The notes: generated by a model from the letters alone, not told the origin. Shown: positions 24,388 to 51,061, counted from the first letter of the stretch. The stretch: 64,000 bases of DNA from Candidatus Hadarchaeales archaeon (GCA_038872135.1 JAVZGN010000002.1:49031-113030); one strand, 5' to 3'. Program-made: numbers and translations.

Positions 24388-25026
24388 TTATTCCTGCTCC
24401 CGTTTCAAAGCTTTTGCCACTTCCTCCACAGTTTTCGCCGTCACTGCCGCCAGCTTCCTTTCAAGGCTGTCAACAAACCTGCTCGCCGGAGCCCCAAGCT
24501 GCCAGAGATCGACATAGGCCTGAACTATTGGAACCACACCATTCTCGCTCATCGCCCTCAAGTGCTCGTCCTGTTCTAGCACAAAGATGTTTCTCTTTTT
24601 TGCTCGGCTCGGGCGGAACTTCCTCTCAACCAACTCTGAGTTTGCGTAGACGAAAACCTGGGAGTATTCTGCTGGTGTTACACCAAAAGTGAACCTGTAG
24701 GCGGAATAAGCGGTGAGCTGACCGATTTTTCTCAGCTCCTCCTCAATTTTCTCGACCTTGGCCGGCGAAAATGTCGTGTATCTGATATCCTTGCCAAGCT
24801 CTCTCGTGGCCGCCCAGTAGAGGAGGAGCCGCTTCGGGTCGACAAGCCTGAAGCCTAGGGGTCGCCTCTCAACTGCCCCTATCTGTTCAAACTTTATGAT
24901 GATTGGATTAACTGTCCCCAGCGAGAGGGAGCAGGTTTTAGCGATGCTCTTCTGGTTGAAAAACCTTATGCCCTGGGAGTAGTACCTATGGAGAATTTCT
25001 CTCATCACACGGTCGATTTTTCTCAT
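24388..25026 (-). CDS. Winged-helix regulator with AbiEi-like C-terminal domain
   Basis: N-terminal HTH NQKSIAKTCSLSLGTVN; LLYWA; TAYSAY; VPIVQAYVDLW. Confidence 0.65.
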   Translation of the reverse strand: MRKIDRVMREILHRYYSQGIRFFNQKSIAKTCSLSLGTVNPIIIKFEQIGAVERRPLGFRLVDPKRLLLYWAATRELGKDIRYTTFSPAKVEKIEEELRKIGQLTAYSAYRFTFGVTPAEYSQVFVYANSELVERKFRPSRAKKRNIFVLEQDEHLRAMSENGVVPIVQAYVDLWQLGAPASRFVDSLERKLAAVTAKTVEEVAKALKREQE

Positions 25027-25031
25027 GTTAC

Positions 25032-25078
25032 CGATTATAAGTCACATATTTTATTTATATTTGTTTCGCTTATAATCG
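25032..25078. promoter_or_regulatory. Perfect 10-bp inverted repeat around an AT-rich TATA-like core (candidate operator)
   Basis: CGATTATAAG (25032-25041), 27-bp spacer containing TTTATTTATATT, CTTATAATCG (25069-25078). Confidence 0.65.
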
Positions 25079-25141
25079 AAACTTTTCCCTAAGGAAAAAC
25101 CGGCGAAAGTTGAAAGGTGGCATAGGTCTCTTTGAAAAGCT

Positions 25142-28100
25142 ATGGTGGCCACCATAGGCAAATTTAGAGATGGGGATTGGCCCCCTGCCAACTATTCTGG
25201 GACAGTTGAAGACAGGCGGGGGGCCCACTCTCCCCAATCCCGAATCACTAATGCTAAATTAAATGACGTTCCTTTATCTGAAAAAGCCCTTTCTATATCC
25301 ATGGTGATTTTAATTCTCCTCTCAACATTTTCCCCAATGCTTCATCTGCCGCTGGCTTCTGCCGGAAGTCTAGTCGATAATTCAACGGAAAACTTTGCTC
25401 TGGGAGTCCACGAGAACACAGAAAACATCGCAAATAGGATAAGGCTCAAATCTGGGTACACTTCCGGCCAGTTCACCTCTCAGATTTTCGATGCTGGCGT
25501 CTGGGCCCATTGGGAGACCATGAACTGGGTGGAGAACGAGCCATTCCTACTTATCCAAGAGAATGACGATGTGGGGGCCGAGCCGGAAACTCTGGCTGAC
25601 GGAAGTTTGAGAAGAGGAGAGATCCTAGGCGGTTCGATCACAGATGTGAGGGTGTTGGACGGAGTTTATGAAAACATTGGGGAGAACACCGAGGACAACT
25701 GTCTGAATTGGGAACACAAGATCGAGAACATTACCTTCGGCTTTGAGAACTATGTGTTGAAGATCAGGGGATACACTGGAGGGGATTATGAGAATGTAGG
25801 CATTTACATCTGGGAAAATCAAGGAGCAACATGGGGGTGGAGGTTTATCGACAATTTAACCTCCACCGAAAAGACAATCGAGTGGACAATTCCCAGAACT
25901 TCCATAGAAAATTACTTAGTCAGCGGCGCTATTTTAATCAGATATTTCGAAAACAACACCGATGCCACTCAGACTTGGGTTGTCGTCGATCTCTGCATCC
26001 TCTCTGGGGAGAACAGGATTTTTTCAGAAGTGAAGATTCAGGTTAGGGTTAGCTCAGACAACGTGGTGTGGACTGGGTGGGCTGGCCCAAGCGGAGACGA
26101 CACAACATTTTTCACTTCTTCCCCGGCAAATCTCACACCAATTCTCGACAGAAGATATATCCAGTACAGAGTTTACTTCACCAGTCCCTCTCCATCCCTC
26201 AGCGGAGGAGATGGGCCAACTTTCGGTGAGGTGGTGATAAACTACTCCCCGGTCAGCCCACCATCTCTTCAATCGCCCTCCAATGGCTCCTGGACAAACG
26301 ACAACACCCCAACATTTGATTGGAGTGATGTAGAGGATGCCACAGAATATCATCTTCTGGTGGACAACGACTCCAACTTTTCATCCCCAGAGATAAATGT
26401 CTTAGTGGCCTCAAGCCAATTCACCTCAGCCACCGAGCTGCCAGATGCAACATACTACTGGAAGGTCAGAGCAAAAGTTGGCAGCGACCTCTCAACCGCC
26501 TTCTCCGCACCCTGGACGGTCAACATCGCCACAGCTCCACCGACCCCACCATCTCTCATCTCGCCGGACAACGATGTTACCCTCTTCGTCGACCAGCCAC
26601 TCTTCAGATGGACCATCTCAACTGGCGTGGGTGCAATTACCTACTGGCTTGTCATAGACAATGATCAGGATTTCTCCTCCCCGATCTACAACAAAACTGG
26701 AATCTCGGAGAACTCTCATGTAATTGAAAACAAACTTCCGGAGAACTTCACTCCCTACTACTGGAAGGTTGCCGCAGTGGACAACATCGGAAACCTGAGC
26801 TGGTCTGAGTGGAGGAAGTTTGAACTGAAGGTTTTCCCGTCTTCAGTTGTCGGCCAGATCTCTCCCTACTGGCAAACAGCGCCTGTAAGCATCTCAGTGA
26901 CGGCAAGTGACAACGATGGAACAATTGAAAATGTCGAGCTGTGGTACAGGTACTCGGTGGACAACTCTGAGTGGGGCCCGTGGACCTTTTATGAAAACCG
27001 CTCCTCCCCGCCCTACTCCTTTACCTTCAACTTCCCAAATGGCCAGGGCCTTTATGAGTTTTACTCGATAGCCTGGGACTCTCGCGGGAACCGGGAAAAT
27101 ACCCCGCCGACCCCGGACACTGCCTGTGGATTTGACAACGCTGCCCCGCCCGCCCCAACTCTGATTCAGCCGGAAAACGATGCTGTGATCGAAACACGGA
27201 AACCAACTTTCCGGTGGACCTCTGTGACCGATCTCTCCGGCGTCACCTACAATTTGATTGTGGATAACGAAAATACTCTAGCTCCCCCACATATTTACTT
27301 TAAGACAGGAATAACGGAAAACTCTCACACAACAGAAAACTCTCTCGACATTGGGGTATATTGGTGGAAGATTGTAGCGAGGGATGCTGTGGGAAATGAA
27401 AATTCTGAGAATGTTTTTATCTTCACGCTTAGACTCTGGAACAACGTTGAGAGATGGTCTGGGGTGATAAAAACAATTTCTGGGTGGATGACAGCCGAAG
27501 TTTGGTCTGTAACAATAAATGCACCTTATGGTGTTTATGGATATCTGCTTGTAGAAGAATGGTCGGCTGTTGTTAATGCTCCACCACCTGTTTTCACAAT
27601 TGTAGAGAGCTGGACTACCACTGTTGCTAGTGAAATCTCTGAATGGAAAGTTGTGGAATCATGGACGGCCAGCATCGGGAGTGGTGGGGGATGGATGCTA
27701 GCAGAGAGTTGGATGAGTACAGTGACGGCTCTCCCGCATATTGGGTGGTCGCAGGTTGAAACCTGGAGTTTCACAGCGGTAACACTTGCAAGATGGGAAC
27801 TCGTAGAGGGATGGAATGCTTCAATCACGGCTGCTGCGTATCTCGGCTGGCCGCAGGTAGAAATGTGGTCGGTGACAGTAGATGCCCTCCCCTATGTTGA
27901 ATGGGTGCAAGCTGAGATCTGGGCGGAAACATTGACAACCTCAGCCCAATGGTTTGTATGTGAGAGCTTCGCTGCGGATATCGTCGCTAATGTGGTCTCG
28001 GGATGGACATTTGTGGAAACTTGGACCCCCACCCTAACCTCGGTAGTGTTGAGTGGATGGACACTGGACGAAAGCTGGATTGCTACGATTACCGCGGAGA

Positions 28101-31100
28101 TCCTTCAACCGGTTCTCCTCCTGCCCCTAGACGGGGAGAACACCAACAACACAAACCCAACTTTCGACTGGGAGGACAACACCCTCCCGATAGACAACTT
28201 CGAGATTCAGATAGACGATGACCAGGACTTCTCGCCCCCGCTTGTGAGATGGGAAAACACTGGGGCGACGAGCCAGTACAGCCCCGGCTTCCTTCCTGAT
28301 AACCTCTACTGGTGGAGGGTTAGGATGTGGAGGGGAGGGGTGCCGGGGGCCTGGGCTCAGAGAACTGTAAGAGTTGATACACTGCCACCAGAGAAACCAT
28401 CTCTCCTCTCCCCCCTAGATGGAGAAAACGAAAATGACAGCGCACCTAATCTCCGGTGGAGCGCCCCGCCCGAGAACTCCTTCCCGCTCACTTATTTTGT
28501 CCAAATCTCCAACTCCAAATACTTCGAGCCGGAAAACATTGCCACAAGCGCTTGGGTGATGGAAGAGAACTGGGAGGTGCCACCGGTGCTTCAGGAGAAT
28601 GTATGGTACTGGTGGAGGGTGCTTGTGAAAGACAATGCTGGAAACACAGGGGACTATTCATCTGCCAGAAAATTCAAGATAGACACCATAGCACCGCCAC
28701 CGCCCACCGTCATCTGGCCGGAGAACGACGGGTGGACGACTACCCTGCCGAACCTAGACTGGGCGCCGGTGGTTGAAAATTCCCTCCCGGTGGTCTACTT
28801 CGGAGAAATTTCACTTTTCCCAGACTTCTCCGGCAGCCCGCTCAGAACCATTTCAACGCTGGACGACAACTGGAGCGTTTCACCGGAACTCTCAGAGGGC
28901 ACATACTTCTGGAGGCTTAAGGTCAGGGACAATGCAGGGAACTTGGGAAGCTGGTCGCAGGGATTTGTCTTCAAAGTTGACAACACGCCACCAACCGCAC
29001 CACAGCCACCCTTCACGCCACCAAACAACGGCTCAGCGCCCACTGGGTTGGTTCAATTCCAGTGGGCGGCGGCCTCCGACAGTGGCTCGGGCGTTGCAAA
29101 ATACGCGATTCAGATAGATGATGAACCTAACTTCAACCCACCGCTTGTGCATGAAAATGACAACGTTGTTGGAACTGCATACTCTTGCCTACTTGAATTT
29201 CCGAAGACATATTACTGGAAGGTAAAAGCCATTGATAACGTTGGCAACGAAGGGGAGTGGTCTGAGACCCTCAGTTTCTTTGCCACCACCGTCTGGAGGT
29301 CCATTGAGAGCTGGACGGGCACAATAGCTACCTCTGCCGCCTATCAACAGGCCGAGTCTTGGGTAGCCACCATCATAACTGTTGCTCAGTGGACGCCAAT
29401 TGAATTTTGTGTAGGAACGATCGCCACCAGCGCTTCCTGGAAGTCTGTTGAGAGCTGGACGGCAACAATAACCACTACAGCCACATGGCAGTTTACTGAA
29501 ACATGGAGTGGTATAATTGCTACCGCAGCTGCTTGGCGGTTTGCTGAGACATGGGCTGGTACAATTGCTACTGCTGCTCAGTGGCAGCTAGTTGAATCAT
29601 GGCAGGTAACCATTACAACATCGGCTCAGTGGCAGGTTGTCGAGAGTTGGACTGGAACGATAACGACTTCTGCTTCATGGCAGCAGGTTGAATCGTGGAC
29701 TGCCACAATCGCTACTGCGGCCGTCTGGCAGGTTGTTGAATCCTGGATATGCACGATAAAGGTTGGTGGAGAATGGAAACTAGCAGAAAGCTGGTCCGTT
29801 AATATTGCCCCGCCTGCCGACTGGAACTACATTGAAACTTGGGCGGCAAAAATTATCGCTATCATTCCCGCTCCAATCCCAGTTTCCCCGCGTAATGGAG
29901 AGAACAAAAACACGCTTCCAACCCTCCGCTGGGACAACCTTCTCCCTGCAGACAACTTCCAGCTCCAGATAGACAACAACCCAGACTTTTCCTCACCAGA
30001 AAACGACCTTACAGTCTTTGAGAACTTCTACACACCGCCAGCCCTCCAAGACAACCTCTGGTACTGGAGAGTTAGGACATTCAGGAACAACGAGAACTCT
30101 GCTTGGTCCACTGTGTGGAAGTTCAGGATCGACAGGCTTGCTCCTGGAAAACCTGTGCTCGTTTCACCGAGCGATGGGGAGAACATCAACGACAACACTC
30201 CACTCTTCCGCTGGCAGGCCCCACCAGAAAACTCCTTCCCGCTCGTCTACACCATCCAGATATCCACAACTTCAACATTCGCTCCCGGAACATACAACGA
30301 GTTCGCCGTTACCTCTTACGAGCAGGAAGTGGGCTGGATGGTTCCGCAAGAAAACCCCTTGGCCGACAACATCTACTACTGGAGGGTAAAGGCAAGAGAC
30401 AACGCAGGCAACGAGGGAGCATTCTCTACACCCAGAAAGTTCAGGGTTGACACTGTTTCGCCAGTCATTACCCTCATCTCGCCGGCAAACGGTGAAACCG
30501 TCAGCTCGAGACCAACTCTGAGCTGGTCCCTCGTTTATGCCGAAAATACCTTGCCCGTCGTCTATAACGCTTTGATCTCTGACACCAGCACCTTCGAATT
30601 CAGCTATGAAAATGTGAAAATAACCGAGAACTCATACACCACCCAGCCACTCGACGAAAGCGTTGGAACATATTACTGGAAGGTTTGCGCATGGGACAAT
30701 GCAGGAAACTGGAGCGGATGGTCCGAGACGAGGTGGTTCACAGTCAGAACTGCGTGGAGACAGGCTGAGAGCTGGAACCTCATGCTGACTACTTCTAGCC
30801 AGTGGAATCTGGCTGAAAGCTGGTCTGCCGCTGCTACGACTTCGGCCGAGTGGAGACAAGTTGAAGCATGGGGTACAGTGCTCAGTACAACTGCTAAGTG
30901 GTCGCAGGTTGAAACATGGCAAGCAACAATGGTCGCTTCTGCTAGCTGGCAACAGGTTGATGGCTGGGCTGTAACTCTAATAACCGCCGCAAACTGGCTC
31001 CTCGCTGAAACATGGCAGGGGATTGCAACGACTACCGCAAAGTGGTTCTCAACAGAATCTTGGACAGGGGCAGTAGCCACTGTCTCTATCTGGCAAACTA

Positions 31101-34100
31101 TAGAGAACTGGTGGGCTATGGTAACTGCTCCAGTTTATCATGGATGGATTAACGCTGAAAGTTGGAGCGGATACGTATCGTCTGGGGGTGGCTGGGTCCC
31201 CGCCGAATTCTGGAGCGCAACTATCGAAGGATGGGCTTTTTGGAAGATTGTTGAAAGCTGGTCAGACACGATAAACGCTAGCGCAGGTTGGAAAACCACT
31301 GAAACATGGCAAGTTCAAATATACTCGCCAATCCCAGCACCTGTTCTCATCTTCCCGCCAGATGGCTATAACTTCAGCCCAAGTGTCGGAGAGCTTGTGC
31401 TTAAGTGGGACAACTCGCAGCCGGCAGACAACTTTGAGATTCAAATAGACAACGATTTCGACTTTTCTTCCCCAGAAGTAGACGATTTCACCTCTACCGA
31501 AAACTTTGTGGTCCCGTCCCTGCCTGACAACCTCTACTGGTGGAGAGTAAGGACCTTCAGAACTGGCGAGAATTCTCAGTGGTCCGAGGTTTGGAGGTTC
31601 CGCATCGATAACATTCCCCCAGCTGTTCCTTCCCTCCTCGCTCCTTCAGAAGGGGAGAACATCAACGATAACACTCCGCTTCTTAGGTGGCAGGCCCCGC
31701 CCGAGAACTCCTTCCCGCTCAGATATAGGGTTCAGGTTGCTACCGACAAATTCTTCACAAACATTGTGAGGGAGGCTCTCTGGACGGTCACGGCGGAGAA
31801 CTGGGAGATCCCGGCCGAAAACTCGCTGCCAGACAACATGTACTACTGGAGAGTCGCGGCAAAAGATAACGCGGGCAACTACAGCATGTTCTCCTCCTAT
31901 AGAAGCTTCAGGGTCGACACCCTCAAGCCCGCGGTTCCATCTCTCACTTCTCCACCCCATGGAGCTTGGATCGCCTTCCCATCTCTCACGTGGAGCAAAG
32001 TAACCGATATCTCTCTCCCGCTTCTCTATAACCTTCAGATAGCCTATGACAACGACTTCTCCCATCTCGTTGTGAACGTGGAGCTTCTGGATAACTCCTG
32101 GAGCGGGCCACTGGATGAGGGGTTATACTGGTGGAAAGTTCAGGCGAAAGATGGAGCCGGCAACCTGAGCGGATGGTCGGAAAACCGGAAGTTCATCGTT
32201 GACAACGCCCCGCCGACAAAGCCGGTTCTCTCTACACCTGAAAACAGCACAGATGTGAATATAGGGACAATAACATTTGGATGGCAGGCTTCTGATCCTG
32301 GAGCTGGAATTTCAAAATACTGGATTCAGATAGATAATGAACCTGACTTTGATAACACCTTTTTCGTGCACGAAAATCAGATGGTCACAGAAAATACCTA
32401 TCAGTACATCATCTCAGTGAGCGGAAGATATTATTGGAGGGTAAGGGCAATAGACGGGGCTGGAAACATCGGTGAATGGTCGGACAACTGGAACTTCTTC
32501 GTATATGGCTGGAGCTCCATTGAAAGCTGGATGGCAATGATCAGTGGGCCGAGCCAGTGGAGAAATGTTGAGAGCTGGAATGCAACTATCAAAACTAGGG
32601 CTTATATCTGGGAAAAGCTGGAGAACTGGAGCGCCAGCATTCAGGCCCCATTTTTGGCAGGGTGGAGTTTTGTGGAAAGCTGGCAGGTAGAATTCATTTC
32701 CGTTACAGTATCTTGGAGAGGTGTTGAAAGCTGGAGAGCGATTATAACTGGAAGAGTGATTGCTCCGGTACTTCTCTCCCCCTCGAATGGCCTGAACACA
32801 TCTCAGAACCCACTCACATTCAGGTGGGAGAATGTCCATCTCGCTGACAACTACAGGATCCAGATAGATAACAAGTCCCCGGTGGTTGCTTACGAAAATG
32901 ACAATGTGGGGGCCGAGCCGGAAACCCTGGTTGACGGAAGCTTGAGAAGAGGAGAGATCCTAGGCGGCTCGATCACAGATGTAATGGTTCTGGACGGAGT
33001 TTATGAAAATATTGGAGAGAACACCGAGGACAACTGTCTGAATTGGGAACACAAGATCGAGAACATTACCTCCGGCTTTGAGAACTATGTGTTGAAAATT
33101 AAGGGATACACTGAAGGAGACAATGAAAACATCTTTGTGTACATCTGGGAGAATGACTTTGGGACTTGGAGATGGCGAGAAATTGGAACCATCACCTCAA
33201 ATGAAACAACAATCGTCTGGGAAATGAAATACACAAACATCGAGAAATATTTGATGGATGGCTCGATTTATGTCAGATATCTTGAAAACACTCCAGACTT
33301 GGTGCAAACGGTTCTTCACATAGATCTCTGCGTGCTGATGGAAAATCTCGAGAATCTGACTCCACCATTTTTAGTTGACGCAACGAGCACTGACAACTTC
33401 TACACCTACACATTCCCCGAGAATGGGAGATACTGGTGGAGAGTAATGGCAATGGTCCAGGGGATTGTCGGAGATTGGTCAAACATCTGGACGGTTCGAG
33501 CCGATACTGTTGCTCCACAGCCGCCAATCCTGATATCCCCAATCCACCATGAAAATGTTAATGATACTACTCCACTTCTCCGCTGGCAGGCCCCGCCCGA
33601 GAATTCTCTTCCCGTGAAATTCTTTGTTCAGGTAGCAACCGATCCAACATTCAATACTATCATTAGAGAAAACTGGGTTGTTGGAGAGCAATGGGAGGTG
33701 TATCCGCCACTACAGGAAAATGTTTACTACTGGATGGTGCTTGCGGTTGACAATGCAGGAAATTCCAGTCCTCCCTCTCCAACCTGGGAGTTTAGGGTTG
33801 ACATAACATCTCCCGCCACGCCTGAACCCAAAGCCCCCCGTGATGGAGAAAATCTGAATGACAACACCCCAGAACTAGTGTGGACTAGTGTTTGGGATGA
33901 TTCTCGGCCAGTAGTCTATCGCATTCAAGTAGCTTATGATGAGGCATTCCAGTTTATGGTTCCTGGATGCGATGTTTATGTCTATGAAAACACTTGGACA
34001 ACTCCCGAGCTTCCCAGCGAGAGAGTGTATCGATGGAGAGTCAAGGCCATAGACAATGCTGGAAATGAAAGTGGATGGTCTCCAACTCAAAGATTCAGGT

Positions 34101-36727: not shown

Positions 36728-37370
36728 GGTGGAGCCAGAATTTCGCCTGACGAGGGCGGGAAAAATTAAATGGAAGCTGAAGAAAAACTGGAAAGTTATC
36801 GCGGCAATTATTCTATCTATATCAATAGCGGTGGGAGTTTATCTCTCAACCCTCCAGCCATCCAAGATTTCCAGAAGAGCTAAGATTACTGCTCCCTATG
36901 TTGAATTTGAAAGTAGAAGGGGGTTCTTTGCCGTGCGTAAATACCAGGAGTCTGGAATCGAAAACATTTACATCGTTAAATTTCCCAATTTTGACCCGAC
37001 CAGGGATGCGATGTCTCAGCTGGAAAATGTTGATGCAATCATTTCGAGTAGCGGGCAAACTGTGGATGTTTCGGACAATGCCCTTTTTGCTATAGTTGTG
37101 GCCGTTAGAGCAAAGGCTCCAGACAACATCGCATATGTGGTCAAAGAGAATATGTGGGTCTGGCTCGGGGCTAGTGGAGCATTCACCATCCCGAACTCTC
37201 TGGCTCCAGACTGGAAAGAATATGTTTTTGAGAGTTCTGGATATGGAACTGCGAATGGTTACATGAGAGTAAATGTGATCTGGGACAACGATGGCGAGGG
37301 ATATATACTGTACGCAGGGCAACATCTCTTCATAGACAACATCGTCTTGAAATTTTTCAGTCCAAGATAG
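36720..37370 (+). CDS. Uncharacterised single-pass membrane protein, paralog of 50465-51061
   Basis: Basic N-terminus, TM VIAAIILSISIAVGVYL, beta-rich ectodomain; start overlaps the giant gene's stop. Confidence 0.82.
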   Translation: MDEVEPEFRLTRAGKIKWKLKKNWKVIAAIILSISIAVGVYLSTLQPSKISRRAKITAPYVEFESRRGFFAVRKYQESGIENIYIVKFPNFDPTRDAMSQLENVDAIISSSGQTVDVSDNALFAIVVAVRAKAPDNIAYVVKENMWVWLGASGAFTIPNSLAPDWKEYVFESSGYGTANGYMRVNVIWDNDGEGYILYAGQHLFIDNIVLKFFSPR

Positions 37371-37418: not shown

Positions 37419-38216
37419 TTGGCGGACCGAAAGATGAAACAACCTTCAATACCTGAACTTTTGAGACCGAAGCGAGAAAGGGGAATAGAAATAAAACCGA
37501 AACATGGGAGAGTGGTTGGGCTTTTTTCCTGCAAGGGAGGTGTTGGAAAGACTACCACCACGGCAAATCTCAGTCTCGCCCTTTTGGAAAAACTTGGAAC
37601 GAATATCTTGGCTTTCGACGCAAACATCGGTGCCCCTAACCTTGGACTGCATTTTGGCGAGCTAACTCCAAAAATAACAGTTCATGATGTCATCTCCGCG
37701 GAGCTTCCGGTGGAAAATGCTATTCTCACAGTTCAGGGGTTGAAGATGATTTTGGGATCGATAGCCTTTGAAGATGAAGTTCACCTGGTAGATCTCAGGG
37801 AGCTGATAAACCCCTTGAGAAAGATGTTCAAACTTGTCATCGTCGACTCTGCCCCGGGGATAGGAAGCGAGGTGGTCGCCGCCCTGAAGGCCTGTGACGA
37901 GATAATAATTGTCACGGACCCATATGTCCCAACGATCGCAAGCACATTGAAGACATTTCGGGCAGCAGAAAAATATAAGGTTCCAATCTTCGGTGTTGTT
38001 GTGAACAGGGTGGCGGGGGACCCGTTTGAGCTTCCGATCAAAGAAATAAGAAAGGCATTAGGGTGGCCTGTGGTGGCGGTGGTCCCGGAAGACAAGAAAG
38101 TGAGGGAAGCAACTGCTGCCGGCATCCCTGTAGTAAAATATGCGCCGAAGTCGCCGGCCGCCAAAGAGTTTGTTATGCTGGCGAACACTGTGTATGAACA
38201 TCTCAGAAAGGGGTAG
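37419..38216 (+). CDS. minD: MinD/ParA-family ATPase
   Basis: Deviant Walker A KGGVGKTTT, DANIGAPNL, IVDSAPG, VPED..VREA...G.PVV. Confidence 0.88.
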   Translation: MADRKMKQPSIPELLRPKRERGIEIKPKHGRVVGLFSCKGGVGKTTTTANLSLALLEKLGTNILAFDANIGAPNLGLHFGELTPKITVHDVISAELPVENAILTVQGLKMILGSIAFEDEVHLVDLRELINPLRKMFKLVIVDSAPGIGSEVVAALKACDEIIIVTDPYVPTIASTLKTFRAAEKYKVPIFGVVVNRVAGDPFELPIKEIRKALGWPVVAVVPEDKKVREATAAGIPVVKYAPKSPAAKEFVMLANTVYEHLRKG

Positions 38217-39533: not shown

Positions 39534-39610
39534 CGGATAACCATTCCTTTTAGAGAAATAAAGTTGGAGGTTCCCAAATGGTTTAATGTTTACAAACGAT
39601 GGAAGTTTGT

Positions 39611-40588: not shown

Positions 40589-40633
40589 AGGATTGGGAGC
40601 TAAAAGGATTTAATACCTAACTGTTGAGGGGAA

Positions 40634-41221: not shown

Positions 41222-41235
41222 CGGTAAACAGAAAG

Positions 41236-41427: not shown

Positions 41428-41430
41428 AAG

Positions 41431-41709: not shown

Positions 41710-41747
41710 GATTTTATCTTCCCGGAAATCTTTAATTCAGGATCAAG

Positions 41748-42350
41748 GTGAGAGAAGCAAAATTCTGGCAGATAAAACCCGAGATAAGAATTCTCGGGGT
41801 GGACGATGGATCCTTCGCTCCGCATATAAGAACCGTGCCTCTTGTTGCAACTGTTTTCAGGGGGGGAAAGTGGTTTGATGGAGTAATGAAGACAGATATT
41901 GCGAAGGATGGAGAGGATGTCACAGAAAAGCTGATTGCAATGGTGAGGAAGAGCCGCCATCTTGGCCAGCTCAGGGTGATAATGACAGATGGAATAACAT
42001 TTGGTGGTTTCAATGTCCTCGACGCTAGGAGAGTTTTCAGGGAGCTGGGGCTTCCCGTAATAGCCGTTTCGAGGAGACGGCCGAACATGGTGGAAATAAA
42101 GAGAGCGATTAAGCACCTCCCTGGCTGGAAGAAAAGGTGGGAAATTCTAAGAAAGACGGGAAAGATCTACAGCGTCAAGACGATGCACAGGGGTGGAGAG
42201 ATATTCATCCAGCCCATCGGGATAAAAATCGGAGATGCGAGAAGGATAGTTGAGATGAGTTCTATTAGGAGCTTGATTCCCGAGCCGATAAGAGCGGCCC
42301 ACATGATCGCCACAGCAATTGCGATGGGGGAGAGTCATGGTAGGGTTTAG
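41748..42350 (+). CDS. DUF99/UPF0215 endonuclease V-like protein
   Basis: ILGVDDG, DGEDVT, DGITFGGFNVLD, IPEPIRAAH. Confidence 0.88.
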   Translation: MREAKFWQIKPEIRILGVDDGSFAPHIRTVPLVATVFRGGKWFDGVMKTDIAKDGEDVTEKLIAMVRKSRHLGQLRVIMTDGITFGGFNVLDARRVFRELGLPVIAVSRRRPNMVEIKRAIKHLPGWKKRWEILRKTGKIYSVKTMHRGGEIFIQPIGIKIGDARRIVEMSSIRSLIPEPIRAAHMIATAIAMGESHGRV

Positions 42351-42927
42351 AAAACTTTTGAAAGGATTTCTTGCTCATGGAACTGTAAGGTGGTTTTTGG
42401 AACTCCTTCTGACCCTAGGAGTTCTATACTTTGCCATGGCCGGGACGATGATTTTGATTTTCAGAACTAATTCCTACTGGATGGGGGTGATCTCTGGGAG
42501 CATGAAACATGAAGGTGAAGGATGGAGGGAATATTTTGAAAATGGGAGGGTGAGAGAGGCCTTCTTGATAGCAGAAGGTGCCCCCGTCTTTTATCAGACG
42601 ACCTACGACACAAAGAAATTTCCGATTCAGGGAGGTTTTGAACGCGGAGATCTCCTGATCATTCAGGGTGTGTCTTCTGTGGCCGAGATTTCCGTTGGAG
42701 ATGTCATCATCATAGACAGGCGCCCGCGCAACCCTGTAGCCCTCACCCACAGGGTTCTGGGTGTGTGGCAGGAAAATGGGAAGGTGAGATTTACAACAAA
42801 GGGGGACCACAATCCATATCTAATAGAGCCTGATGATGTCGTCGTCCTGCCTGAAAAGATAGTTGGGAAGGTGATTTTCGTTGTCCCAAAGCTCGGATTC
42901 TTCTCCCTCTGGAGCCAGGGAAAATAA
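42337..42927 (+). CDS. Signal peptidase I (Sec11 type)
   Basis: TM segment, VISGSM, GDL, THRV, TKGDHN, IVGKV...PKLG. Confidence 0.88.
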   Translation: MVGFRKLLKGFLAHGTVRWFLELLLTLGVLYFAMAGTMILIFRTNSYWMGVISGSMKHEGEGWREYFENGRVREAFLIAEGAPVFYQTTYDTKKFPIQGGFERGDLLIIQGVSSVAEISVGDVIIIDRRPRNPVALTHRVLGVWQENGKVRFTTKGDHNPYLIEPDDVVVLPEKIVGKVIFVVPKLGFFSLWSQGK

Positions 42928-42931
42928 AAAG

Positions 42932-43315: not shown

Positions 43316-43319
43316 AACG

Positions 43320-43649: not shown

Positions 43650-43660
43650 GTGATTTTTCC

Positions 43661-44020
43661 ATGAGCTATCCCCTTTCAACGGCTCCGGCGATTCCAAAAA
43701 AGATATCAGAGATTACAGCCTCTTCTGAGAGGGTGAGGGTCTTCGGAGTTGTTGTCGCCAAGGGGGAGGGGGAGCTTTTGATTGATGATAGATCAGGACA
43801 GATAAATGTGGTTTTTGAGGATCCTCAGACGATAAAAGATGTAAAAGTTCAATCGATGGTGCGGGTCTTTGGCGTCCCAATGGTTACGGAAGAGGGGGTG
43901 GAGCTGAGGGGGGAAATCATTCAAAAGCTTGATGGACTAAAGATAGAGCTTTATGAAGAAGTGCAGAGGGAATGGAGGAGATTGGAGGAAGAAGTGAGGC
44001 GGTTGAGTGGTAAGAGTTAG
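43661..44020 (+). CDS. OB-fold protein, RPA small-subunit-like
   Basis: RVRVFGVV...IDDRSGQI...VRVFG; C-terminal helix; lies between tfs and pcn. Confidence 0.7.
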   Translation: MSYPLSTAPAIPKKISEITASSERVRVFGVVVAKGEGELLIDDRSGQINVVFEDPQTIKDVKVQSMVRVFGVPMVTEEGVELRGEIIQKLDGLKIELYEEVQREWRRLEEEVRRLSGKS

Positions 44021-44756
44021 AATGAAGAGCCCGGAAGTCTGGAAGACATTCGTGAAGTCGGTTGTGAACCTCATAGGAGAGGGGGCTATGAAATTTGAGA
44101 GCGATGGAGTGAAGATGAAGGCAATAGACCCCTCCCGCGCCGTCCTCGTTGACTTCCATCTCAAAAAAGATGCTTTTGAAGCATATGAGGTGAAGGAATC
44201 TAAACTTGTGGGGGTGAAATTCGACGAGCTGGAAAAGGTTCTCTCTAGAGCAAAATCTGATGATGAGCTGATAATGGAGCTGGATGAAACCCAAGGAAAG
44301 CTTGCGATAACCTTCAAGGGAGCCTCAACGAGAAAACTCAGCATCCCTTTGATCTCTGTGGATGAGAGGGAACTCCCTGAGCCGAAGATTCAGTTCACGG
44401 CGGAGGTTGAGGTTACTGGCGAAGTCATCCAGGATGGATTGAAGGATGCCGAGATGGTTGGAGAGACAATAAAGTTCATTGTGGATAAAGATGAGTTCCA
44501 AATGATCGGGGAGGGAACAGAGGGGAGGTCTGAACTGAAGCTGTCCAAGGGGGACAAGGGGCTTGTGAAGATATCGGTCCAGCAGCCGGCGAAATCGAAG
44601 TTTGGGCTGAAAAACATTGCAGAGATAACGAGGGGAGTGAAGGGGTCTGATGTCGTCAAAATAAGCCTTGGGACAGACATTCCCCTGCAGCTTGACCTCC
44701 CGCTGGAAAATGGAAAGCTGAGATTTTTTGTCGCCCCCTACATTGATGTTGAGTAG
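44007..44756 (+). CDS. pcn: PCNA sliding clamp
   Basis: AIDPSRAVLV, GTDIPL, FFVAP. Confidence 0.93.
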   Translation: MVRVRMKSPEVWKTFVKSVVNLIGEGAMKFESDGVKMKAIDPSRAVLVDFHLKKDAFEAYEVKESKLVGVKFDELEKVLSRAKSDDELIMELDETQGKLAITFKGASTRKLSIPLISVDERELPEPKIQFTAEVEVTGEVIQDGLKDAEMVGETIKFIVDKDEFQMIGEGTEGRSELKLSKGDKGLVKISVQQPAKSKFGLKNIAEITRGVKGSDVVKISLGTDIPLQLDLPLENGKLRFFVAPYIDVE

Positions 44757-44800
44757 TTCTGAAAGTTAAAAGCCGACCAGTAGATGATAATCGGGAGAAA

Positions 44801-46087
44801 ATGCTGCCGGGAGAATATCGGGCGGTCATAGATCCTTTTTCAGAAGAAGCTAGGGAGATTCTCAAGAGTGTCCCCTTGGAGAGCCTGCCAGCCGATGTTG
44901 TAGAGATGGCGGTGAAAAGGGTTGGATGGAGTGGAAGGGAGGGGATGATCGAAGCAAACATCGATGCAATAAAAGCTGATGTTCTCTCCTTTCACCTCAT
45001 GTGCATGGGGATAGCCTCGGTTTCCCATCCCTACTCGAGAGAGGTTGCCCTTGCCAGCGAAGCCACAAGAAATGTGATCAGATATAGGGTTTCCAAGCTT
45101 TTCGGGATGGGGGAGGAGAAGTTTTGCATAGAAACCATGGCAAAATATCTCAACCTGATTGATGTTGAAAAGGGAGAGAAATACAGGGTTGGGGATGCAG
45201 AGATTCCAGATGCAGATGTCTTTAGGATCAGAGACAAAAGGATGGAGAAAGATGGGAAGGAGGTTGATCCGGCATTTCTTTCCTGGTATTTTCCCCGATA
45301 TGCTGTGAGATGGACAGATCTGGCGCCGATCATGAGGAGGGGGAAAATAGACCTAACGGACCTTTACCTGATGAATGGATGGGCAGTGCTCACGACCAGA
45401 GACCTTTGGGATGTGTATGCCGACTTTATAAGCGTTAAAACTGAGGAGCATATCCAATCAATTTATGAGAAGATTCAGCCGGCGGGCGAAGGGGGAAGCG
45501 CTGGTGAATCTCTCTTCATAGAAGTGGGGGGAAGAATCTCTGCCCTAGTTCCGAAAACTTCGAGTGTTGGGGGGTGGTGGGCCGGAGCTGGAAAGCTAAG
45601 ACCGGAGTTTTTCCCGCCCTGCATCTTGGCAACACTTGAGGGGGTTGGTAGTGGGATGAGGAACTTTGCTATAACGATGCTGCTGACGACATTTCTCTCT
45701 TATGCGAGGGTTGCACCCTCAGGGAAGGTGGTTACAAAAATGGCTGATTTTATCGACGACATTTCGGTTGTAACAGAGGAGATTGCGCCGATCATCTTCC
45801 AGGCGGCCGAGAGATGCAATCCACCCCTGTTTAAAGATCAACCACAGGAGAAGGCAAACGTTTTTTACCACATGGGGTTTGGGATGACTACTGCGCCCAA
45901 GCTCTCGGACTCTGGAAAATCGAAGTGGTACCGGGTGCCGAATTGCTCGAAAATTCAGATGTCGACGCCAACGCTTTGTAGGCCGGATGAACTCTGCAGG
46001 AGGGTGAAGAATCCCCTCACCTACTACTTCAGGAAGAAAGCTGAGAGCTTCAGGAGGGGCAGTCAAACCAGTGGTGTCGGGGATTGA
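44801..46087 (+). CDS. priL: DNA primase large subunit
   Basis: DPFSEEA, FFPPCI..GV.SG.RNFAIT.LLT.FL, WY..PNC.KI...LC.PD..C..VKNPLTYY Fe-S domain. Confidence 0.88.
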   Translation: MLPGEYRAVIDPFSEEAREILKSVPLESLPADVVEMAVKRVGWSGREGMIEANIDAIKADVLSFHLMCMGIASVSHPYSREVALASEATRNVIRYRVSKLFGMGEEKFCIETMAKYLNLIDVEKGEKYRVGDAEIPDADVFRIRDKRMEKDGKEVDPAFLSWYFPRYAVRWTDLAPIMRRGKIDLTDLYLMNGWAVLTTRDLWDVYADFISVKTEEHIQSIYEKIQPAGEGGSAGESLFIEVGGRISALVPKTSSVGGWWAGAGKLRPEFFPPCILATLEGVGSGMRNFAITMLLTTFLSYARVAPSGKVVTKMADFIDDISVVTEEIAPIIFQAAERCNPPLFKDQPQEKANVFYHMGFGMTTAPKLSDSGKSKWYRVPNCSKIQMSTPTLCRPDELCRRVKNPLTYYFRKKAESFRRGSQTSGVGD

Positions 46088-46467
46088 GAAACTCCAGACG
46101 GCCTCTCGGTTTTTGTGGTCTTGGTGTCCACTGCGTGAAGTCTATATGTTTAACTGTGCCGCCCAATAATCTCGGCTCGACCTCCAATCCATTCTGGAGG
46201 CTGGCTTGGGACGAGACTGGGTCAGAAGCCCACAGGAGATGATCAACCATGTCAGGAACTCGAAGAGTTCCTAACACGTTTCGTCCATACGTATTTGGGG
46301 GTGCAAAAAATCTGCGCTTGCGTTTTCTCTCCACCGTGGCCGATAACATCAACCAATGAGAGGGCCGCTATCCTCTGACGCTGATGGATTAAGCTTTGGA
46401 TGGGATGTGTATTTGTGCCTTTTAACATTAGTAAAATTTAAATAATGTTAATAATTCTAATATTATT

Positions 46468-47751
46468 GTGGAAAAACAAGAAATAATTCCAAGGGATATT
46501 TTAACAAAATTCGAGAAATTGCTAGAAAGACGAGAGGCTCTTGCGATAAAAGGTCCCCGACAATCGGGGAAGACAACTCTTTTGAAAATCTTGGCGAGAA
46601 GACTTGAGAACGCAGGCAAAGTCGTTTTTCTGAATTTCGAGGACCCCGATGTGCTCGAAGCCTTTGAGAGGGACCCCAAGGGTTATGTGCGGAGCTTCAT
46701 GCTCGGTCCCGAAAGGCATTACTTCTTGATGGACGAGTTCCACTACATCAGTGAACCTGGAAAGAAACTCAAGTTACTCTACGACACCTTCGAGAATGCG
46801 AAGTTCATCGTCACCGGTAGTTCCTCCCTAGAACTCGGTGGGGCGATGGCGAAATTTTTGGTGGGTCGAGTGTTTTTCTTTGAGTTGCTTCCCTTCAGCT
46901 TCCACGAGTTCCTAGTGGCAAAAAACGAGAGATTGGCTAAGATTTATGAGAAAAAGAACGAAGCCATCAAAGCCTTCATGCTGGGAGAAGAAGTAGAACT
47001 GGAAGAAGATATCTTCGTGAAAGAGCTTGAGCCCCTTTTCCTTGAGTACCTCACTTACGGCGGCTATCCGGCTGTGGTCTTGGCTAACGATGCGGAGACA
47101 AAGCGAATGATCCTGAAAGGCATATACGATACATACATTTCCAAAGATGTGATTGAGTTTTTGAAATTCACCGACGCGTTCAAGTACAGAGATACTATCA
47201 GGATCCTAGCAGCGTCGGTTGGAGGATTGCTAAACTACCAAGCGGTGGGCTCGGCGGTCCAAAGCTACTTCAAGGAGCTGAAGCGGATCCTCTCGATTCT
47301 CTCCGAAACGTACGTGATAATCTTGCTCCGACCATTCTCAAGGAACCCGAGAACCGAGCTAAGGAAAAGCCCAAAGGTCTATTTCTTTGACTTGGGGCTC
47401 AGGAACTATGTGCTAAACAATTTTAACCCACTCGACAGGAGGGCTGATGCCGGAGCGATGGTTGAAAACTTCGTGCTGCTGGAGCTAATGCGTGCCTTCC
47501 CAGCTGAGTCCTTAAATTACTGGCGGACGATAGCAAAAGCCGAGGTAGACTTCGTGCTGAGGGTCGGGGAAAAATTGATACCGATAGAGGCCAAATATCA
47601 AAGTTTCGCGGAACCAAAAATCTCAAGAAGCCTCCGGAGCTTCATCCACACTTACAGCCCAGAGCGCGCTTTGGTTGTGACCCGCGATAGGTGGGCGAGG
47701 AGTGAAATTGATGGAACAAAAGTGCTTTTCGCTCCCGCCTGTTACATTTAA
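46468..47751 (+). CDS. AAA+ ATPase with C-terminal DUF4143 nuclease-like domain (COG1373-like)
   Basis: GPRQSGKTT, DEFH, TGSSS, GGYP, PKVYFFDLGL, ENFV, EVDFV...PIEAK. Confidence 0.9.
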   Translation: MEKQEIIPRDILTKFEKLLERREALAIKGPRQSGKTTLLKILARRLENAGKVVFLNFEDPDVLEAFERDPKGYVRSFMLGPERHYFLMDEFHYISEPGKKLKLLYDTFENAKFIVTGSSSLELGGAMAKFLVGRVFFFELLPFSFHEFLVAKNERLAKIYEKKNEAIKAFMLGEEVELEEDIFVKELEPLFLEYLTYGGYPAVVLANDAETKRMILKGIYDTYISKDVIEFLKFTDAFKYRDTIRILAASVGGLLNYQAVGSAVQSYFKELKRILSILSETYVIILLRPFSRNPRTELRKSPKVYFFDLGLRNYVLNNFNPLDRRADAGAMVENFVLLELMRAFPAESLNYWRTIAKAEVDFVLRVGEKLIPIEAKYQSFAEPKISRSLRSFIHTYSPERALVVTRDRWARSEIDGTKVLFAPACYI

Positions 47752-50462
47752 CGATGCACAAGCTTGGATTCTTCCTCATGACCTAATCTTAGGCCGCTTG
47801 AGATTTCGGGGAGACTCTTCTTCCCGAGCCTGAGGTACCTCCACACAACAGCTAAAACAACGATTGAAAGGACTATGAAGGCGGCCACAATGAGGTAGGG
47901 GGACGAAACACCGGCTAGAGGAACTGTCGGCATCGTAGAAATTGTGATGGTGTGAACGGAGAAGTAAGGGATTGAGACGATAACTTGGATCCCTCTGCCT
48001 CCCTTCACCAAATAATATTCTGGTAAACCATTGTCATTTGTCGGGTCGAGGGCATCTACATAATCATCTGCAAGGGCTATTTCAACGTCATTGAGGAGGA
48101 CCCTAGCAGTCCATCCCGCCGGGAGCACTCGATTTTCAACATTTATCACAACTGTTGTGCCATTTTCCATCGAGCTGATGTTCTCCACGACGAGCTCTAC
48201 TTTTTCACCGAATACTACCGTGCCGAGTGTTATCCTGAGGTCCTTGTGCTCGTATCCCCTTGAAATTCCCGGTTTTTCAGCTTCAATTCTGATAGCCACG
48301 ACCGCTCCGAGATTTCCCCTTAGGAAGGCATTTTCCAGCTCCCTCAATTTCTCCTCTTCAACTGGAACTCCGATATCAGCAGCCTGCTCGATAAAGTTGT
48401 TTTCCATGACTTCCATTTTCTGCTCTACCAGCTGGCTCACCACCGTAGCAGTGGAAATAGCAGTGGTAGCAGAATAGATGTTGTCGCCGGCAAAAAATGC
48501 GGTTATAGTGGCAGTTGTCTGATTTTCCACAATTGGGGCTGTGAAGATGACCGTGGCCTGCCCAGAGTTGTCAGTACTGCTGGTGAAGTAGCTGAGGCTT
48601 CCGAGGGTTGTTGACCAGGAGATGATTTTGCTGGAAAGTGGAAGCCCTCGCGAGGTGAGCTTGACGATCAAAGTCTCGGTCTTTCCAGATCCTATTACGA
48701 AACTTGCCGGGGAAATCGTGAGGGTTGTGGGAGCCGGGGTTATCGTCACCGTCAGACTCGCATTGCTCGAATAATAGCTCGCATCCCCGGCGAAAGAAGC
48801 CGTGACCACAACATTTTCGGATGCCGCGACACCTTGGGCAATGTAAATAACTGAGGCATTGCCATTCCCATCGGTTGTAGTGGCGGTCGCCGAGAGAACA
48901 CCTTTTGCAACACTCCAGGAAATGGTCTTTCCTGAAAGGACCAACCCATTCGCGTCTTTGAGGGTAGCCGTCAGCATCACCGAATCGCCGGGTAAAATGC
49001 TCAGGCTAGAAGGAGCTATCGTTAAAAAGGTGGAGATTCTTGAGGGGGGAGGGGAGGGCGTTGTAATTCTCGCGCTCCGGCTTTCGACCATCTGAAACCA
49101 AGTTGTTGTCGTAACAGTTGCACTCCTGCTCTCAGCCAGAGTATACCACAAAGCTGTTGTGATTGTAGCAGCCCAATTTTCGGCCAGCTGAAACCATGCT
49201 GGTTCTTTTGGCCCTATTTGCACGGATGGCATAGGATCTATCGACTTTCGAAGAATTTTCCAGACATCACGCCTGTAATTCCCATCGTAACCTCCCATCA
49301 CCCAGACTGCATCTTTGAAAACAACTGATGAGTGTTCATATCTCGCGCTCCATGTGACTCCGGTCAATTTCGTCCAGCTTGAGCCATTTTCTGAATACCA
49401 AATGTCGGAAAGATATTCCGCCCACAACTCCCCATTGCCACCAATAACCCACATCCGGTTGTCAAAAACAACTGAAGTGTGATATCTCCTGGGAGTCCAG
49501 CCGCCATTTCCAGTCGCTTGGAACCAGTTTTCACCATCTGAAGAGTACCAGACATCATTCTTGAAAGCACCGCTTGAGTATCCTCCAATCACCCACATCC
49601 TGTTGTTGAAGACCACCGAGGAATGGCTGTGGCGCGGGCTCCAAGGGGCTGCTGAAGTAACCTGACACCAGTTAACACCATCACTAGAATACCAGACATC
49701 ATTCTTGTAGTTGCCATCATAACCTCCGATTACCCAGATTTTACCGGCAAAAACAATCGAAGTGTGGCCCCATCTCGCCGACCATCCTGGAGAAGATGTT
49801 GCGAGTATCCAGTTTTCGCCATTCTCCGAATACCAGACCTCAGAGTCTGGGCCACCGATTACCCACATCCGATTGTTGAAAACCACCGATGTGTGATTTC
49901 TTCGCGAAGTCCATCCCGCATTGTCAACAACTAGCATCCAGTTAACTCCATCGGCTGAACACCAGACATCATTTTCTGCGTTTTCAGCCCCTCCTCCAAT
50001 CACCCAGATTTTATTATCAAATACGAGGGAAGTGTGGGCATACCTTGGAGACCAGCCGGCATCTGCCGTCGCCTGAACATCAGCATACGGAAGAATAGTG
50101 TTCTCCCAGCTGCTCACATTTGTGGCCGTGGGATTTCCATAGTAAACGTAAATCGTGTTGTCGGAATTTTCAGGCCTCCGCACCCAAATAGTCGCGTTGT
50201 CTGGGGTGTAGTTCTCGACCCAGAAATTGAGAAGGCCGAAATTATCGTTCTCCAGAAACCTTAGATCTCTGAAGTCTGGTTGCATCTCAGCGTAGAAGGG
50301 GAGAATTATCTTCAGATGAATATTCTCGGGATGAGGGGAAATTGTGATGGCCCTCCTCCTCGTCCAACTCTCATCCCACCATCCGGCGGCTGCTGCGTAG
50401 GGAGAACTTAGAAGCATCGACAAGAGAAAAATCACTAAAAACGCCCGCGAAAACCGTTGCAT
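47748..50462 (-). CDS. Membrane-anchored surface protein: DUF2341-like N-domain, Kelch beta-propeller, 3 Trp repeats, 2 Ig-like domains, C-terminal TM
   Basis: Signal MQRFSRAFLVIFLLSMLLSSPYAAA; WWDESWTRRRAITI..DLRF..IYVYYGNP; repeated R..HTSVVF...WVIGG...DVWYS; YLIVAAFIVLSIVVLAVVW. Confidence 0.88.
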   Translation of the reverse strand: MQRFSRAFLVIFLLSMLLSSPYAAAAGWWDESWTRRRAITISPHPENIHLKIILPFYAEMQPDFRDLRFLENDNFGLLNFWVENYTPDNATIWVRRPENSDNTIYVYYGNPTATNVSSWENTILPYADVQATADAGWSPRYAHTSLVFDNKIWVIGGGAENAENDVWCSADGVNWMLVVDNAGWTSRRNHTSVVFNNRMWVIGGPDSEVWYSENGENWILATSSPGWSARWGHTSIVFAGKIWVIGGYDGNYKNDVWYSSDGVNWCQVTSAAPWSPRHSHSSVVFNNRMWVIGGYSSGAFKNDVWYSSDGENWFQATGNGGWTPRRYHTSVVFDNRMWVIGGNGELWAEYLSDIWYSENGSSWTKLTGVTWSARYEHSSVVFKDAVWVMGGYDGNYRRDVWKILRKSIDPMPSVQIGPKEPAWFQLAENWAATITTALWYTLAESRSATVTTTTWFQMVESRSARITTPSPPPSRISTFLTIAPSSLSILPGDSVMLTATLKDANGLVLSGKTISWSVAKGVLSATATTTDGNGNASVIYIAQGVAASENVVVTASFAGDASYYSSNASLTVTITPAPTTLTISPASFVIGSGKTETLIVKLTSRGLPLSSKIISWSTTLGSLSYFTSSTDNSGQATVIFTAPIVENQTTATITAFFAGDNIYSATTAISTATVVSQLVEQKMEVMENNFIEQAADIGVPVEEEKLRELENAFLRGNLGAVVAIRIEAEKPGISRGYEHKDLRITLGTVVFGEKVELVVENISSMENGTTVVINVENRVLPAGWTARVLLNDVEIALADDYVDALDPTNDNGLPEYYLVKGGRGIQVIVSIPYFSVHTITISTMPTVPLAGVSSPYLIVAAFIVLSIVVLAVVWRYLRLGKKSLPEISSGLRLGHEEESKLVHR

Positions 50463-50464
50463 GA

Positions 50465-51061
50465 TTAGCCCCATAGCCATAGACTTACAGTAAATCCTGC
50501 ATAAGAGCCAGCGGGCAACTTCCATCCCGTTCCATTATTGTCGAACACTGCATTTATCCTCACATATCCGTTGGCCGTCCCATACCCGGAGTTTTCAAAA
50601 ACATATTCAATCAAGTCGGTTGAGTTATCATGCCAGCTGAAGCCTGATGTCCATTGCAACTCAACCTTTACATTTTCTTTTGAAGCGTAGGCTGGTGGAT
50701 CTCCATCCAAATTTATTGCATCTGCCCTCACAGCCGGCACCACATCGAAGGGGGTCTCATAGGGGATATCAACAGTCTGACCGGGCCCAGTTATTACATC
50801 TAGACAATAGTTTGTATTTCCCGCATATTGACCAAGCCAGCTATTTTTATCATATCCAGAACCATGCTTCATTATATAGATGTTTTCAAACCCATCGGTG
50901 TTTTCTGAGATAAAAGAGTATCCACTTCCGCTCCAGACGGCAACGAGTCTCCACCGAGGTCCCTGAACAATCGATTCTTTGGCAGGGAGATATGAAGTGA
51001 TAAGTAAAACAGCGATTACCAAAGTAGCTAAAATTCCTGCAGCCTGCCATCTTCCAATCAT
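50465..51061 (-). CDS. Uncharacterised exported or single-pass protein, paralog of 36720-37370
   Basis: N-terminal hydrophobic helix; shares ENIYI, GQTVD, AVRA, KEN, EYVFE.SGYGTANGY.R.N...DN.G.G with the paralog. Confidence 0.82.
   Translation of the reverse strand: MIGRWQAAGILATLVIAVLLITSYLPAKESIVQGPRWRLVAVWSGSGYSFISENTDGFENIYIMKHGSGYDKNSWLGQYAGNTNYCLDVITGPGQTVDIPYETPFDVVPAVRADAINLDGDPPAYASKENVKVELQWTSGFSWHDNSTDLIEYVFENSGYGTANGYVRINAVFDNNGTGWKLPAGSYAGFTVSLWLWG

Follow-up and report, generated by a model that had tools for sequence, protein, structure and literature searches.

Which proteins do the small membrane proteins encoded beside hadarchaeal giant surface proteins work with? The question is raised by a 64,000-nucleotide stretch of a Candidatus Hadarchaeales archaeon, here called the window (contig C2:49031-113030 in a 1.08-Mb, 34-contig assembly). 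Between positions 24,388 and 51,061 it encodes two large anchored proteins of different architecture, P0001 and P0002, that share a tryptophan-rich repeat of 16 residues, named W16 here. Each gene lies directly beside one for a small single-pass protein, P0003 or P0004. A sequence-only reading had proposed that repeat and small protein form a functional pair. We find that the small family is most closely and most consistently accompanied by a dedicated signal peptidase I, and that the proposed pair is one local arrangement within a larger conserved module. Tentatively, with a probability of about 0.45, we take the window to hold pieces of an envelope-biogenesis module that would be specific to Hadarchaeota in these searches and would resemble the bacterial SipW/TasA and SipA systems. 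The four genes are the following.

25142..36727, plus strand: P0001, a surface protein of 3861 aa (open reading frame (ORF), domain, repeat and anchor searches)
36720..37370 (start possibly GTG 36729), plus strand: P0003, small family, clade B, no Zn ribbon
47748..50525 (likely start 50462), minus strand: P0002, a DUF2341/Kelch anchored protein
50465..51061, minus strand: P0004, small family, clade C, directly upstream of the DUF2341-Kelch gene

The sequence-only reading described this layout well. All four ORFs were found where it had placed them, and the two small neighbours are paralogs, as it had claimed, with 65/183 identical residues (36%; BLASTP, E 1e-23). It had counted about 50 repeats in P0001 and three in P0002; the pattern WxxxExW matches P0001 46 times, against a mean of 1.0 and a maximum of 6 in 1000 shuffles, and P0002 carries three degenerate units. 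Neither the repeat nor the small proteins match a Pfam or NCBIfam family; the sequence-only reading had recognised neither as a named family. The reported spacing, an 8-bp overlap at one locus and a 2-bp gap at the other, holds if P0003 starts at GTG 36720 and P0002 at Met22 (nt 50462). From GTG 36729, which matches the beginning of its database homolog, P0003 would instead follow P0001 after a 1-nt gap.

A signal peptidase gene beside the small family

Gene neighbourhoods were compared over up to 20 kb around the small-family genes of 33 other genomes; with those of the window included, the set comprises 51 small-family ORFs in 39 loci. A signal peptidase gene of the S26 family lies within 200 bp of 38 of the 51, or 29 of the 37 with at least 1 kb of flank on each side. 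A W16 ORF is found at that distance in 3/51: two in the window, the third in the G029 ortholog pair of P0004/P0002. Within 5 kb, a W16 ORF accompanies 22/51 small ORFs, and 16 of the 22 that have at least 5 kb of flank. The commonest layout starts with a divergent Trm1 or helix-turn-helix (HTH)-like gene, followed by a small gene, an S26 gene, optionally a second small-S26 pair, a MinD gene and the gene of a W16 protein. The order and spacing of small and S26 genes are preserved across four families of the order, and a tandem small-S26-small-S26 in L038 shows the pair duplicated as a unit.

These neighbours are recognizable signal peptidases. Pfam Peptidase_S26 (PF10502) scores above its cut-off in four of the small-gene neighbours tested. 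The NCBIfam model TIGR02228 exceeds its 51.85-bit cut-off in C9 669-1094 (57.5 bits; C9 being another contig of the source genome) and in L054 10644-11141 (73.9 bits), and gives only 18.6 bits for the second C9 copy. Among 34 aligned S26-like ORFs, 24 keep the G-x-S-M-x-P, H-R and K-G-D-N motifs. Nine, including C9 237-665, have Asp, Gly, Glu or Asn at the position of the catalytic Ser, and most of these Ser-less copies retain the His. The remaining one is the general enzyme of the window, misaligned in the table but carrying GSM. Full-length matches to the module-type peptidase occur in 31/34 genomes with the small family and in 1/31 without it, at a threshold of E 2.8e-30 that was chosen after seeing the gap to the next best match (E 8.2e-22). 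A complex prediction of the intact C9 peptidase with residues 55-267 of the C9 small protein, run without controls, scored 0.27 against a mark of 0.32 and speaks neither for nor against a complex.

Three branches of small proteins

Searched against 1.84 billion cluster representatives, a profile of the small family retrieved 109 proteins (E ≤1e-3). The maximum-likelihood tree of 46 proteins, which leaves out five ORFs shorter than 180 aa, has three clades that differ in gene context.

Clade A comprises the remaining rows once clades B and C are set apart. Its members mostly carry a Zn ribbon, MKCPRCGYEW..PKECPRCK.RLDY, and an intact peptidase gene lies downstream of them. They have an n/h/c layout, with a basic n-region, about 11 hydrophobic residues and GLGAWA; the AWA motif of the LPW...GAWAL segment sits at the outer end of the hydrophobic stretch. 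Conservation is higher in the Zn ribbon and in LPW...GAWAL than in the ectodomain. The ribbon, which is cytoplasmic, hardly varies between families of the order and matches no named family in NCBIfam or Pfam. It is absent from P0003 and P0004.

Clade B (11 rows, support 100/100) includes P0003. Ten of its members adjoin S26 genes, eight of them beside an intact one, in several cases with a Ser-less one next. The usual place of a clade B gene is between an intact peptidase and a paralog lacking the catalytic Ser. Clade C (4 rows, support 100/96) includes P0004. All four genes lie directly upstream of a gene for a DUF2341-Kelch anchored protein, in an operon-like arrangement. Two of these four Kelch partners (1258 and 1230 aa) have a beta-helix and an FnIII segment and no W16.

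P0003 has a basic N-terminal tail, a transmembrane (TM) helix at aa 24-44 and an ectodomain at aa ~52-216. Its model, built on a 13-row alignment, is a single-pass beta-sandwich with a predicted local distance difference test (pLDDT) score of 88. Foldseek against the Protein Data Bank (PDB) gave nothing at E 0.001 or better for this fold, the family profile reached at best E 0.85 against PDB sequences, and the best score in the ESM Atlas was 0.89, below the 0.9 lead level and to unnamed clusters. For the small proteins in general we also considered a class III (prepilin-type) signal peptide and rejected it: inspection by eye showed no G/A-hydrophobic cleavage motif ahead of the TM segment.

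The W16 repeat

The W16 units of the window are distributed as follows.

27437..28105, plus strand: array 1 of P0001, aa 766-988, units spaced 16-19, with one gap
29294..29869, plus strand: array 2 of P0001, aa 1385-1576, 12 units, the array that was modelled
30755..31336, plus strand: array 3 of P0001, aa 1872-2065
32510..32761, plus strand: array 4 of P0001, aa 2457-2540
35312..35620, plus strand: array 5 of P0001, aa 3391-3493
49053..49196, minus strand: three degenerate units of P0002, aa 444-491

In P0001, successive units are 16 residues apart 22 times, 17 three times and 18 seven times. The three units of P0002 measure 16 aa each; the first Trp is off by one residue, and the second Trp is replaced by Arg in two of the three. 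Position-specific conservation was derived from 139 units in 20 ORFs. No Pfam family covers the arrays of P0001, and for an isolated array the sole match is DUF7840 (E 0.22). A repeat variant, WQLIETWTGTVEAP, in L043 1-600 on the minus strand (G019) exceeds the Pfam threshold of DUF3499 (E 8.2e-8) over three stretches of ~28 aa; this match is probably compositional.

We modelled with AlphaFold2 a 391-aa piece of P0001 consisting of an FnIII domain, 12 W16 units and a second FnIII domain. The flanks are confident, and the array has pLDDT 49-74, with a predicted template modelling score of 0.37. In structural alignment, the array model matches 3p4g (Z 18.4, root-mean-square deviation (rmsd) 2.6 Å, 191 residues), Ag43 (7koh; Z 17.7, rmsd 3.4 Å, 192 residues) and TibA (4q1q; Z 17.7, rmsd 3.8 Å, 190 residues), at Z scores above the level that the alignment tool deems unspecific for repeats. 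Foldseek with the same model matched the flanking FnIII domains only. Since the array model aligns to parallel beta-helices, we propose, with modest confidence, that W16 is a beta-solenoid with one 16-residue coil per unit. In such a solenoid W1, E5, W7 and T8/T10 would be stacked into ladders. A flat antiparallel meander, considered with a DSSP assignment of 13 strand and three other residues per unit, was rejected on the strength of the 191-residue alignment to parallel beta-helices.

Eighteen database proteins combine W16 with unrelated head domains; the Pfam entries beside it are of NosD-type beta-helix, glycoside-hydrolase, PQQ-propeller, papain-like, MG2 and F5/8-C kinds. The array directly precedes the C-terminal anchor in P0131, P0132, P0133, P0140 and L090. 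In L090 (G053:C7, 7610-10483) the units have a 17-residue period and the array abuts the TM anchor. This locus belongs to a family of the order without the small family, and neither a small gene nor an S26 gene lies within 10 kb of it. Arrays placed just before the anchor fit a stalk or spacer, and their positions suggest that W16 serves mainly as a rigid element of this kind within the cargo proteins.

Distribution across Hadarchaeia

The small family was detected in 34 of 65 Hadarchaeia genomes and in 18 of the 25 high-quality ones. W16, searched with a four-unit profile, was found in 35/65 and likewise in 18/25. A tally by hand gives 30 genomes with both, 4 with the small family only, 5 with W16 only and 26 with neither. 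The small-only genomes (G028, G035, G041, G046) are 82-87% complete; the W16-only genomes (G017, G020, G050, G053, G056) are 65-88% complete. Within genera the two features vary together, and their distribution is patchy: in genus g1, G000 and G042 have both features and G043 and G044 neither, and in genus g2 three genomes have both and three neither.

Homologs of the window proteins carry the source names Hadarchaeales or Hadesarchaea. A peptide-pattern scan gave 72 matches, of which 18 were confirmed, 16 of them titled Hadarchae*/Hadesarchaea and 2 'archaeon'; the scan used two patterns, which distant relatives elsewhere could escape. As far as these sequence searches reach, they support the view that neither repeat nor small family has been catalogued and that both are clade-specific. 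Among the papers listed in our literature searches, none dealt with Hadarchaeota surface proteins, W16 or the small family.

Neighbouring genes and other copies

Three further genes of the window bear on the module.

24388..25026, minus strand: a divergent soluble protein of 212 aa with a weak winged-helix/HTH signal (Pfam below cut-off; homolog context)
37419..38216, plus strand: a MinD/ParA-type ATPase with a deviant Walker A motif, KGGVGKT
42319..42927, plus strand: a signal peptidase I of ~200 aa with GSM / HRV / KGDHN motifs

The ATPase, already recognized in the sequence-only reading, scores 6.8e-19 with ParA and 2.4e-18 with CbiA in Pfam. With minD_arch of NCBIfam it reaches 187.3 bits, below the subfamily cut-off of 201.75. 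A MinD homolog lies within 3 kb of 16/51 small genes. The divergent gene, which had been called a regulator, is present, with sub-threshold HTH matches only (HTH_Crp_2, E 5.9e-4; MarR, 7e-3), and NCBIfam gave no match. Relatives of it labelled HTH by phmmer adjoin small-family genes divergently, for example in L042-L050. The signal peptidase gene, one of a row of housekeeping genes, is located between the two loci, and its product keeps the catalytic Ser, His and Asp motifs. Similar ORFs of ~195-215 aa occur whether or not a genome has the small family. The gene probably encodes the general Sec11-type enzyme, outside the module. Housekeeping genes surround both loci: Nre, diphthamide synthase, PCNA, the large primase subunit, TFS and exosome Csl4.

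The source genome has further copies. A third small paralog, on C9, is a clade A protein of 267 aa with an N-terminal CxxC...CxxC Zn ribbon. At this locus (L002, G000:C9, 237-1961) the small gene is followed by an intact and a Ser-less S26 gene and then by the contig end, with Trm1 divergent upstream. Contig C17 encodes a giant W16 protein, more than 2916 aa long, whose gene is truncated at its 3' end by the contig edge (L001, G000:C17, 2-8749). C9 and C17 may be neighbours, oriented as in related genomes. A W16 protein on C6 (L003, G000:C6, 4942-7359, minus strand) has 805 aa, is Gly-rich and carries 2-3 units and a C-terminal anchor; no small-family gene was found near it. By eye, its gene adjoins genes that resemble an archaellum/pilus-type ATPase and its membrane partner.

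P0001 consists, in order, of a long signal peptide, FnIII/Ig domains alternating with the five W16 arrays, PGF-pre-PGF, a C-terminal TM helix and a basic tail. Its Ig/FnIII-type domains match Ig_Rha78A_N (3.3e-48) and Big_13 (4.8e-36) in Pfam. PGF-pre-PGF (TIGR04213) scores 43.8 bits before the TM helix, against a cut-off of 28; P0002 gives no match to it, and the C6 protein gives 23.3 bits, below the cut-off. The tail past the TM helix (window 36250-36727, aa ~3700-3861) is cytoplasmic, basic and Lys/Glu/Pro-rich over ~140 aa, and contains one motif twice, as ETLEKFIAERRKK / KTLEKFVGKRRK. Similar basic C-terminal tails occur on several database W16 proteins, and that of P0001 could be a cytoplasmic docking site. 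A domain of ~150 aa (..VGAEPETL.DGSLRRGEILGGSITDV..NCLNWEHKIENIT..ENYVLKI.GYT..) is present twice in P0001 in nearly identical form, at window ~25559-26010 and ~32894-33360, and recurs in the C17 giant. P0002 has a signal peptide, DUF2341, a Kelch propeller, the three W16 units, two Big_1 domains and a C-terminal module with TM anchor.

What the module may do

Altogether, gene content, synteny, co-occurrence, motif loss and predicted folds point to a module whose core would be the small family and the extra Sec11-type signal peptidase I genes. The small proteins are predicted to span the membrane once, N-terminus inside, and to expose a beta-sandwich of ~160 aa; they would be dedicated clients of the peptidases, either as substrate or as bound partner. 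The intact and the degenerate peptidase would act on them or hold them. The W16 surface proteins, co-encoded with the MinD-like ATPase and the small HTH-like protein, would be the cargo, and the module, if the analogy with tapA-sipW-tasA and SipA holds, may mature, position or decorate them. The tightest link within the module is that between small family and peptidase; this link and the SipW and SipA precedents together lead us to favour a dedicated client.

Several observations weigh against this proposal. Neither small gene of the window adjoins a peptidase gene, and in clade C an adjacent S26 gene occurs in 0/4. The AxA-like motif is conserved in clade A only, so cleavage cannot be general. 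A mere signal peptide would not be expected to carry the conserved cytoplasmic Zn ribbon, which a client role leaves unexplained. The best structural matches of the small-protein fold in a wide VIA search reach Z 5.6 and are generic Ig-like sandwiches, none an informative relative. The synteny ORFs come from a simple script, a crude caller, with HMMER labels. Finally, the genomes are metagenome-assembled genomes (MAGs): the genes are linked, so that their joint absence may reflect one missing contig, and relatives are not independent samples.

The sequence-only reading had the small ectodomain dock on W16 or polymerise from it, with the repeat proteins as the scaffold of a fibre or branched structure. 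Its expectation that the two co-occur was borne out across genomes, and a W16 gene within 5 kb of most small genes with enough flank agrees with it, as do the two translationally coupled pairs of the window. W16 is also often membrane-proximal, at the height of an anchored ectodomain, and the modelled solenoid would offer a periodic flat face. Direct adjacency, on the other hand, proved to be no general rule, and co-occurrence in MAGs can be explained by physical linkage alone. Within the clades of the two window proteins the tie between partner and repeat does not hold throughout: half of the Kelch proteins beside clade C genes lack the repeat, and P0003 is the only clade B member that adjoins a W16 gene, the other ten lying beside signal peptidase genes. 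Of the 35 genomes with the repeat, five had no detected small homolog, and at the one such locus checked, L090, none lies within 10 kb; copy numbers do not scale either, with ~46 units against 3 and one small gene each. We consider such docking unlikely. A related idea, in which the small proteins are membrane receptors or folding caps for W16 solenoids, loaded by cutting and holding peptidase subunits and positioned by MinD, with W16 as the docking element, seems to us more doubtful still. If true, it would be a previously unrecognised route by which archaea assemble giant adhesins or fibres.

A fate like that of TasA is conceivable for clade A, which would be cut at AWA by its own peptidase, secreted and self-assembled, with the dead peptidase as chaperone and the W16 proteins as mere neighbours. 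The canonical n/h/c layout, the dedicated intact S26 gene next door and the SipW/TasA and SipA precedents all agree with it, and a conserved DN(D/N)GxGY loop may be a Ca-binding one. Yet P0003 and P0004 match neither Peptidase_M73/TasA nor TIGR04088 nor any other family; TasA, AbpA and thread subunits are absent from the 50 VIA matches listed; an invariant Zn ribbon is unexpected on a discarded leader; and clades B and C lack the cleavage motif. We judge this quite unlikely. Signal peptidase performs the site-1 cleavage of RsiV in Bacillus, and the small protein might similarly be a TM sensor that is clipped by signal peptidase, its freed Zn-ribbon stub controlling surface-gene expression together with the HTH protein. 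The strong conservation of the ribbon and the divergent HTH-like gene beside many loci would suit such a sensor, which we nevertheless hold to be very unlikely: P0003 and P0004 have no ribbon, and the divergent neighbour is Trm1 rather than HTH in many genomes. That small, peptidase and W16 genes merely share a variable envelope-gene island, with no functional link, appears just as improbable. Their patchy occurrence within genera and frequent rearrangements between genomes would be expected of an island; the small-S26 order and spacing kept across four families, the duplication of that pair as a unit in L038 and the coupled start and stop codons in the window would not.

Comparison with known systems

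Hadarchaeota are a widespread subsurface lineage, and almost nothing is known of their cell envelope. The window adds two uncatalogued building blocks: a 16-residue repeat, modelled as a Trp-ladder solenoid, that recurs in many extracellular proteins, and a family of single-pass beta-sandwich proteins in three branches. Both are defined targets for MAG annotation, for structural work and for reading cryo-electron tomography images of enrichment cultures such as the one described in PMC10811742.

The small family may be compared with Spc3/SPC22-23 of the eukaryotic signal peptidase complex, a single-pass protein that keeps its N-terminus inside, carries a beta-sandwich beyond the membrane and works with a Sec11-type peptidase. 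The modelled topology of the small family would be alike, but the family has no Pfam match (PF04573), and Spc3 is not among the 50 structural matches listed.

The W16 model would share with region IV of MpAFP (3p4g), Ag43 and TibA the use of tandem short coils in very large surface proteins. In contrast to these, its coil has 16 residues and a W-x3-E-x-W-T-x-T signature with no Pfam family, and the W16 proteins are archaeal and anchored by a C-terminal TM helix, not by a beta-barrel. Bacterial ice-nucleation proteins also have 16-residue coils with TxT motifs, hence the same period and a Thr-x-Thr on one strand per coil. They show no sequence likeness to W16, and the hadarchaeal hosts come from hot subsurface habitats.

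The closest parallels to the module as a whole are bacterial and archaeal assembly loci. In tapA-sipW-tasA of Bacillus subtilis, SipW processes TasA and TapA, and the locus of the archaeal bundling pili (ABP, AbpA/AbpB) is described there without a dedicated peptidase (PMC9245690). The hadarchaeal loci resemble these systems in an extra Sec11/SipW-type peptidase gene beside small beta-sandwich proteins with an N-terminal hydrophobic segment, and in the presence of a transcription-factor-like gene within the same surface-structure locus. They differ in having two peptidase paralogs, a MinD-like ATPase and giant anchored proteins; the small family lacks the TasA signals, and most of its members have a Zn ribbon on the cytoplasmic side. 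SipA (LepA) of Streptococcus pyogenes, which has Asp and Gly in place of the catalytic Ser and Lys, is essential for pilus assembly (PMC4049620). The nine Ser-less hadarchaeal peptidases that stay beside a small-family gene recall it. The hadarchaeal enzymes are of the archaeal Ser/His type, not the bacterial Ser/Lys type, most degenerate copies keeping the His, and neither sortase nor pilin genes were seen at their loci. By this analogy, the module is a candidate archaeal counterpart of the bacterial surface assembly that relies on a dedicated or dead signal peptidase, as in SipW/TasA and in SipA and its pili.

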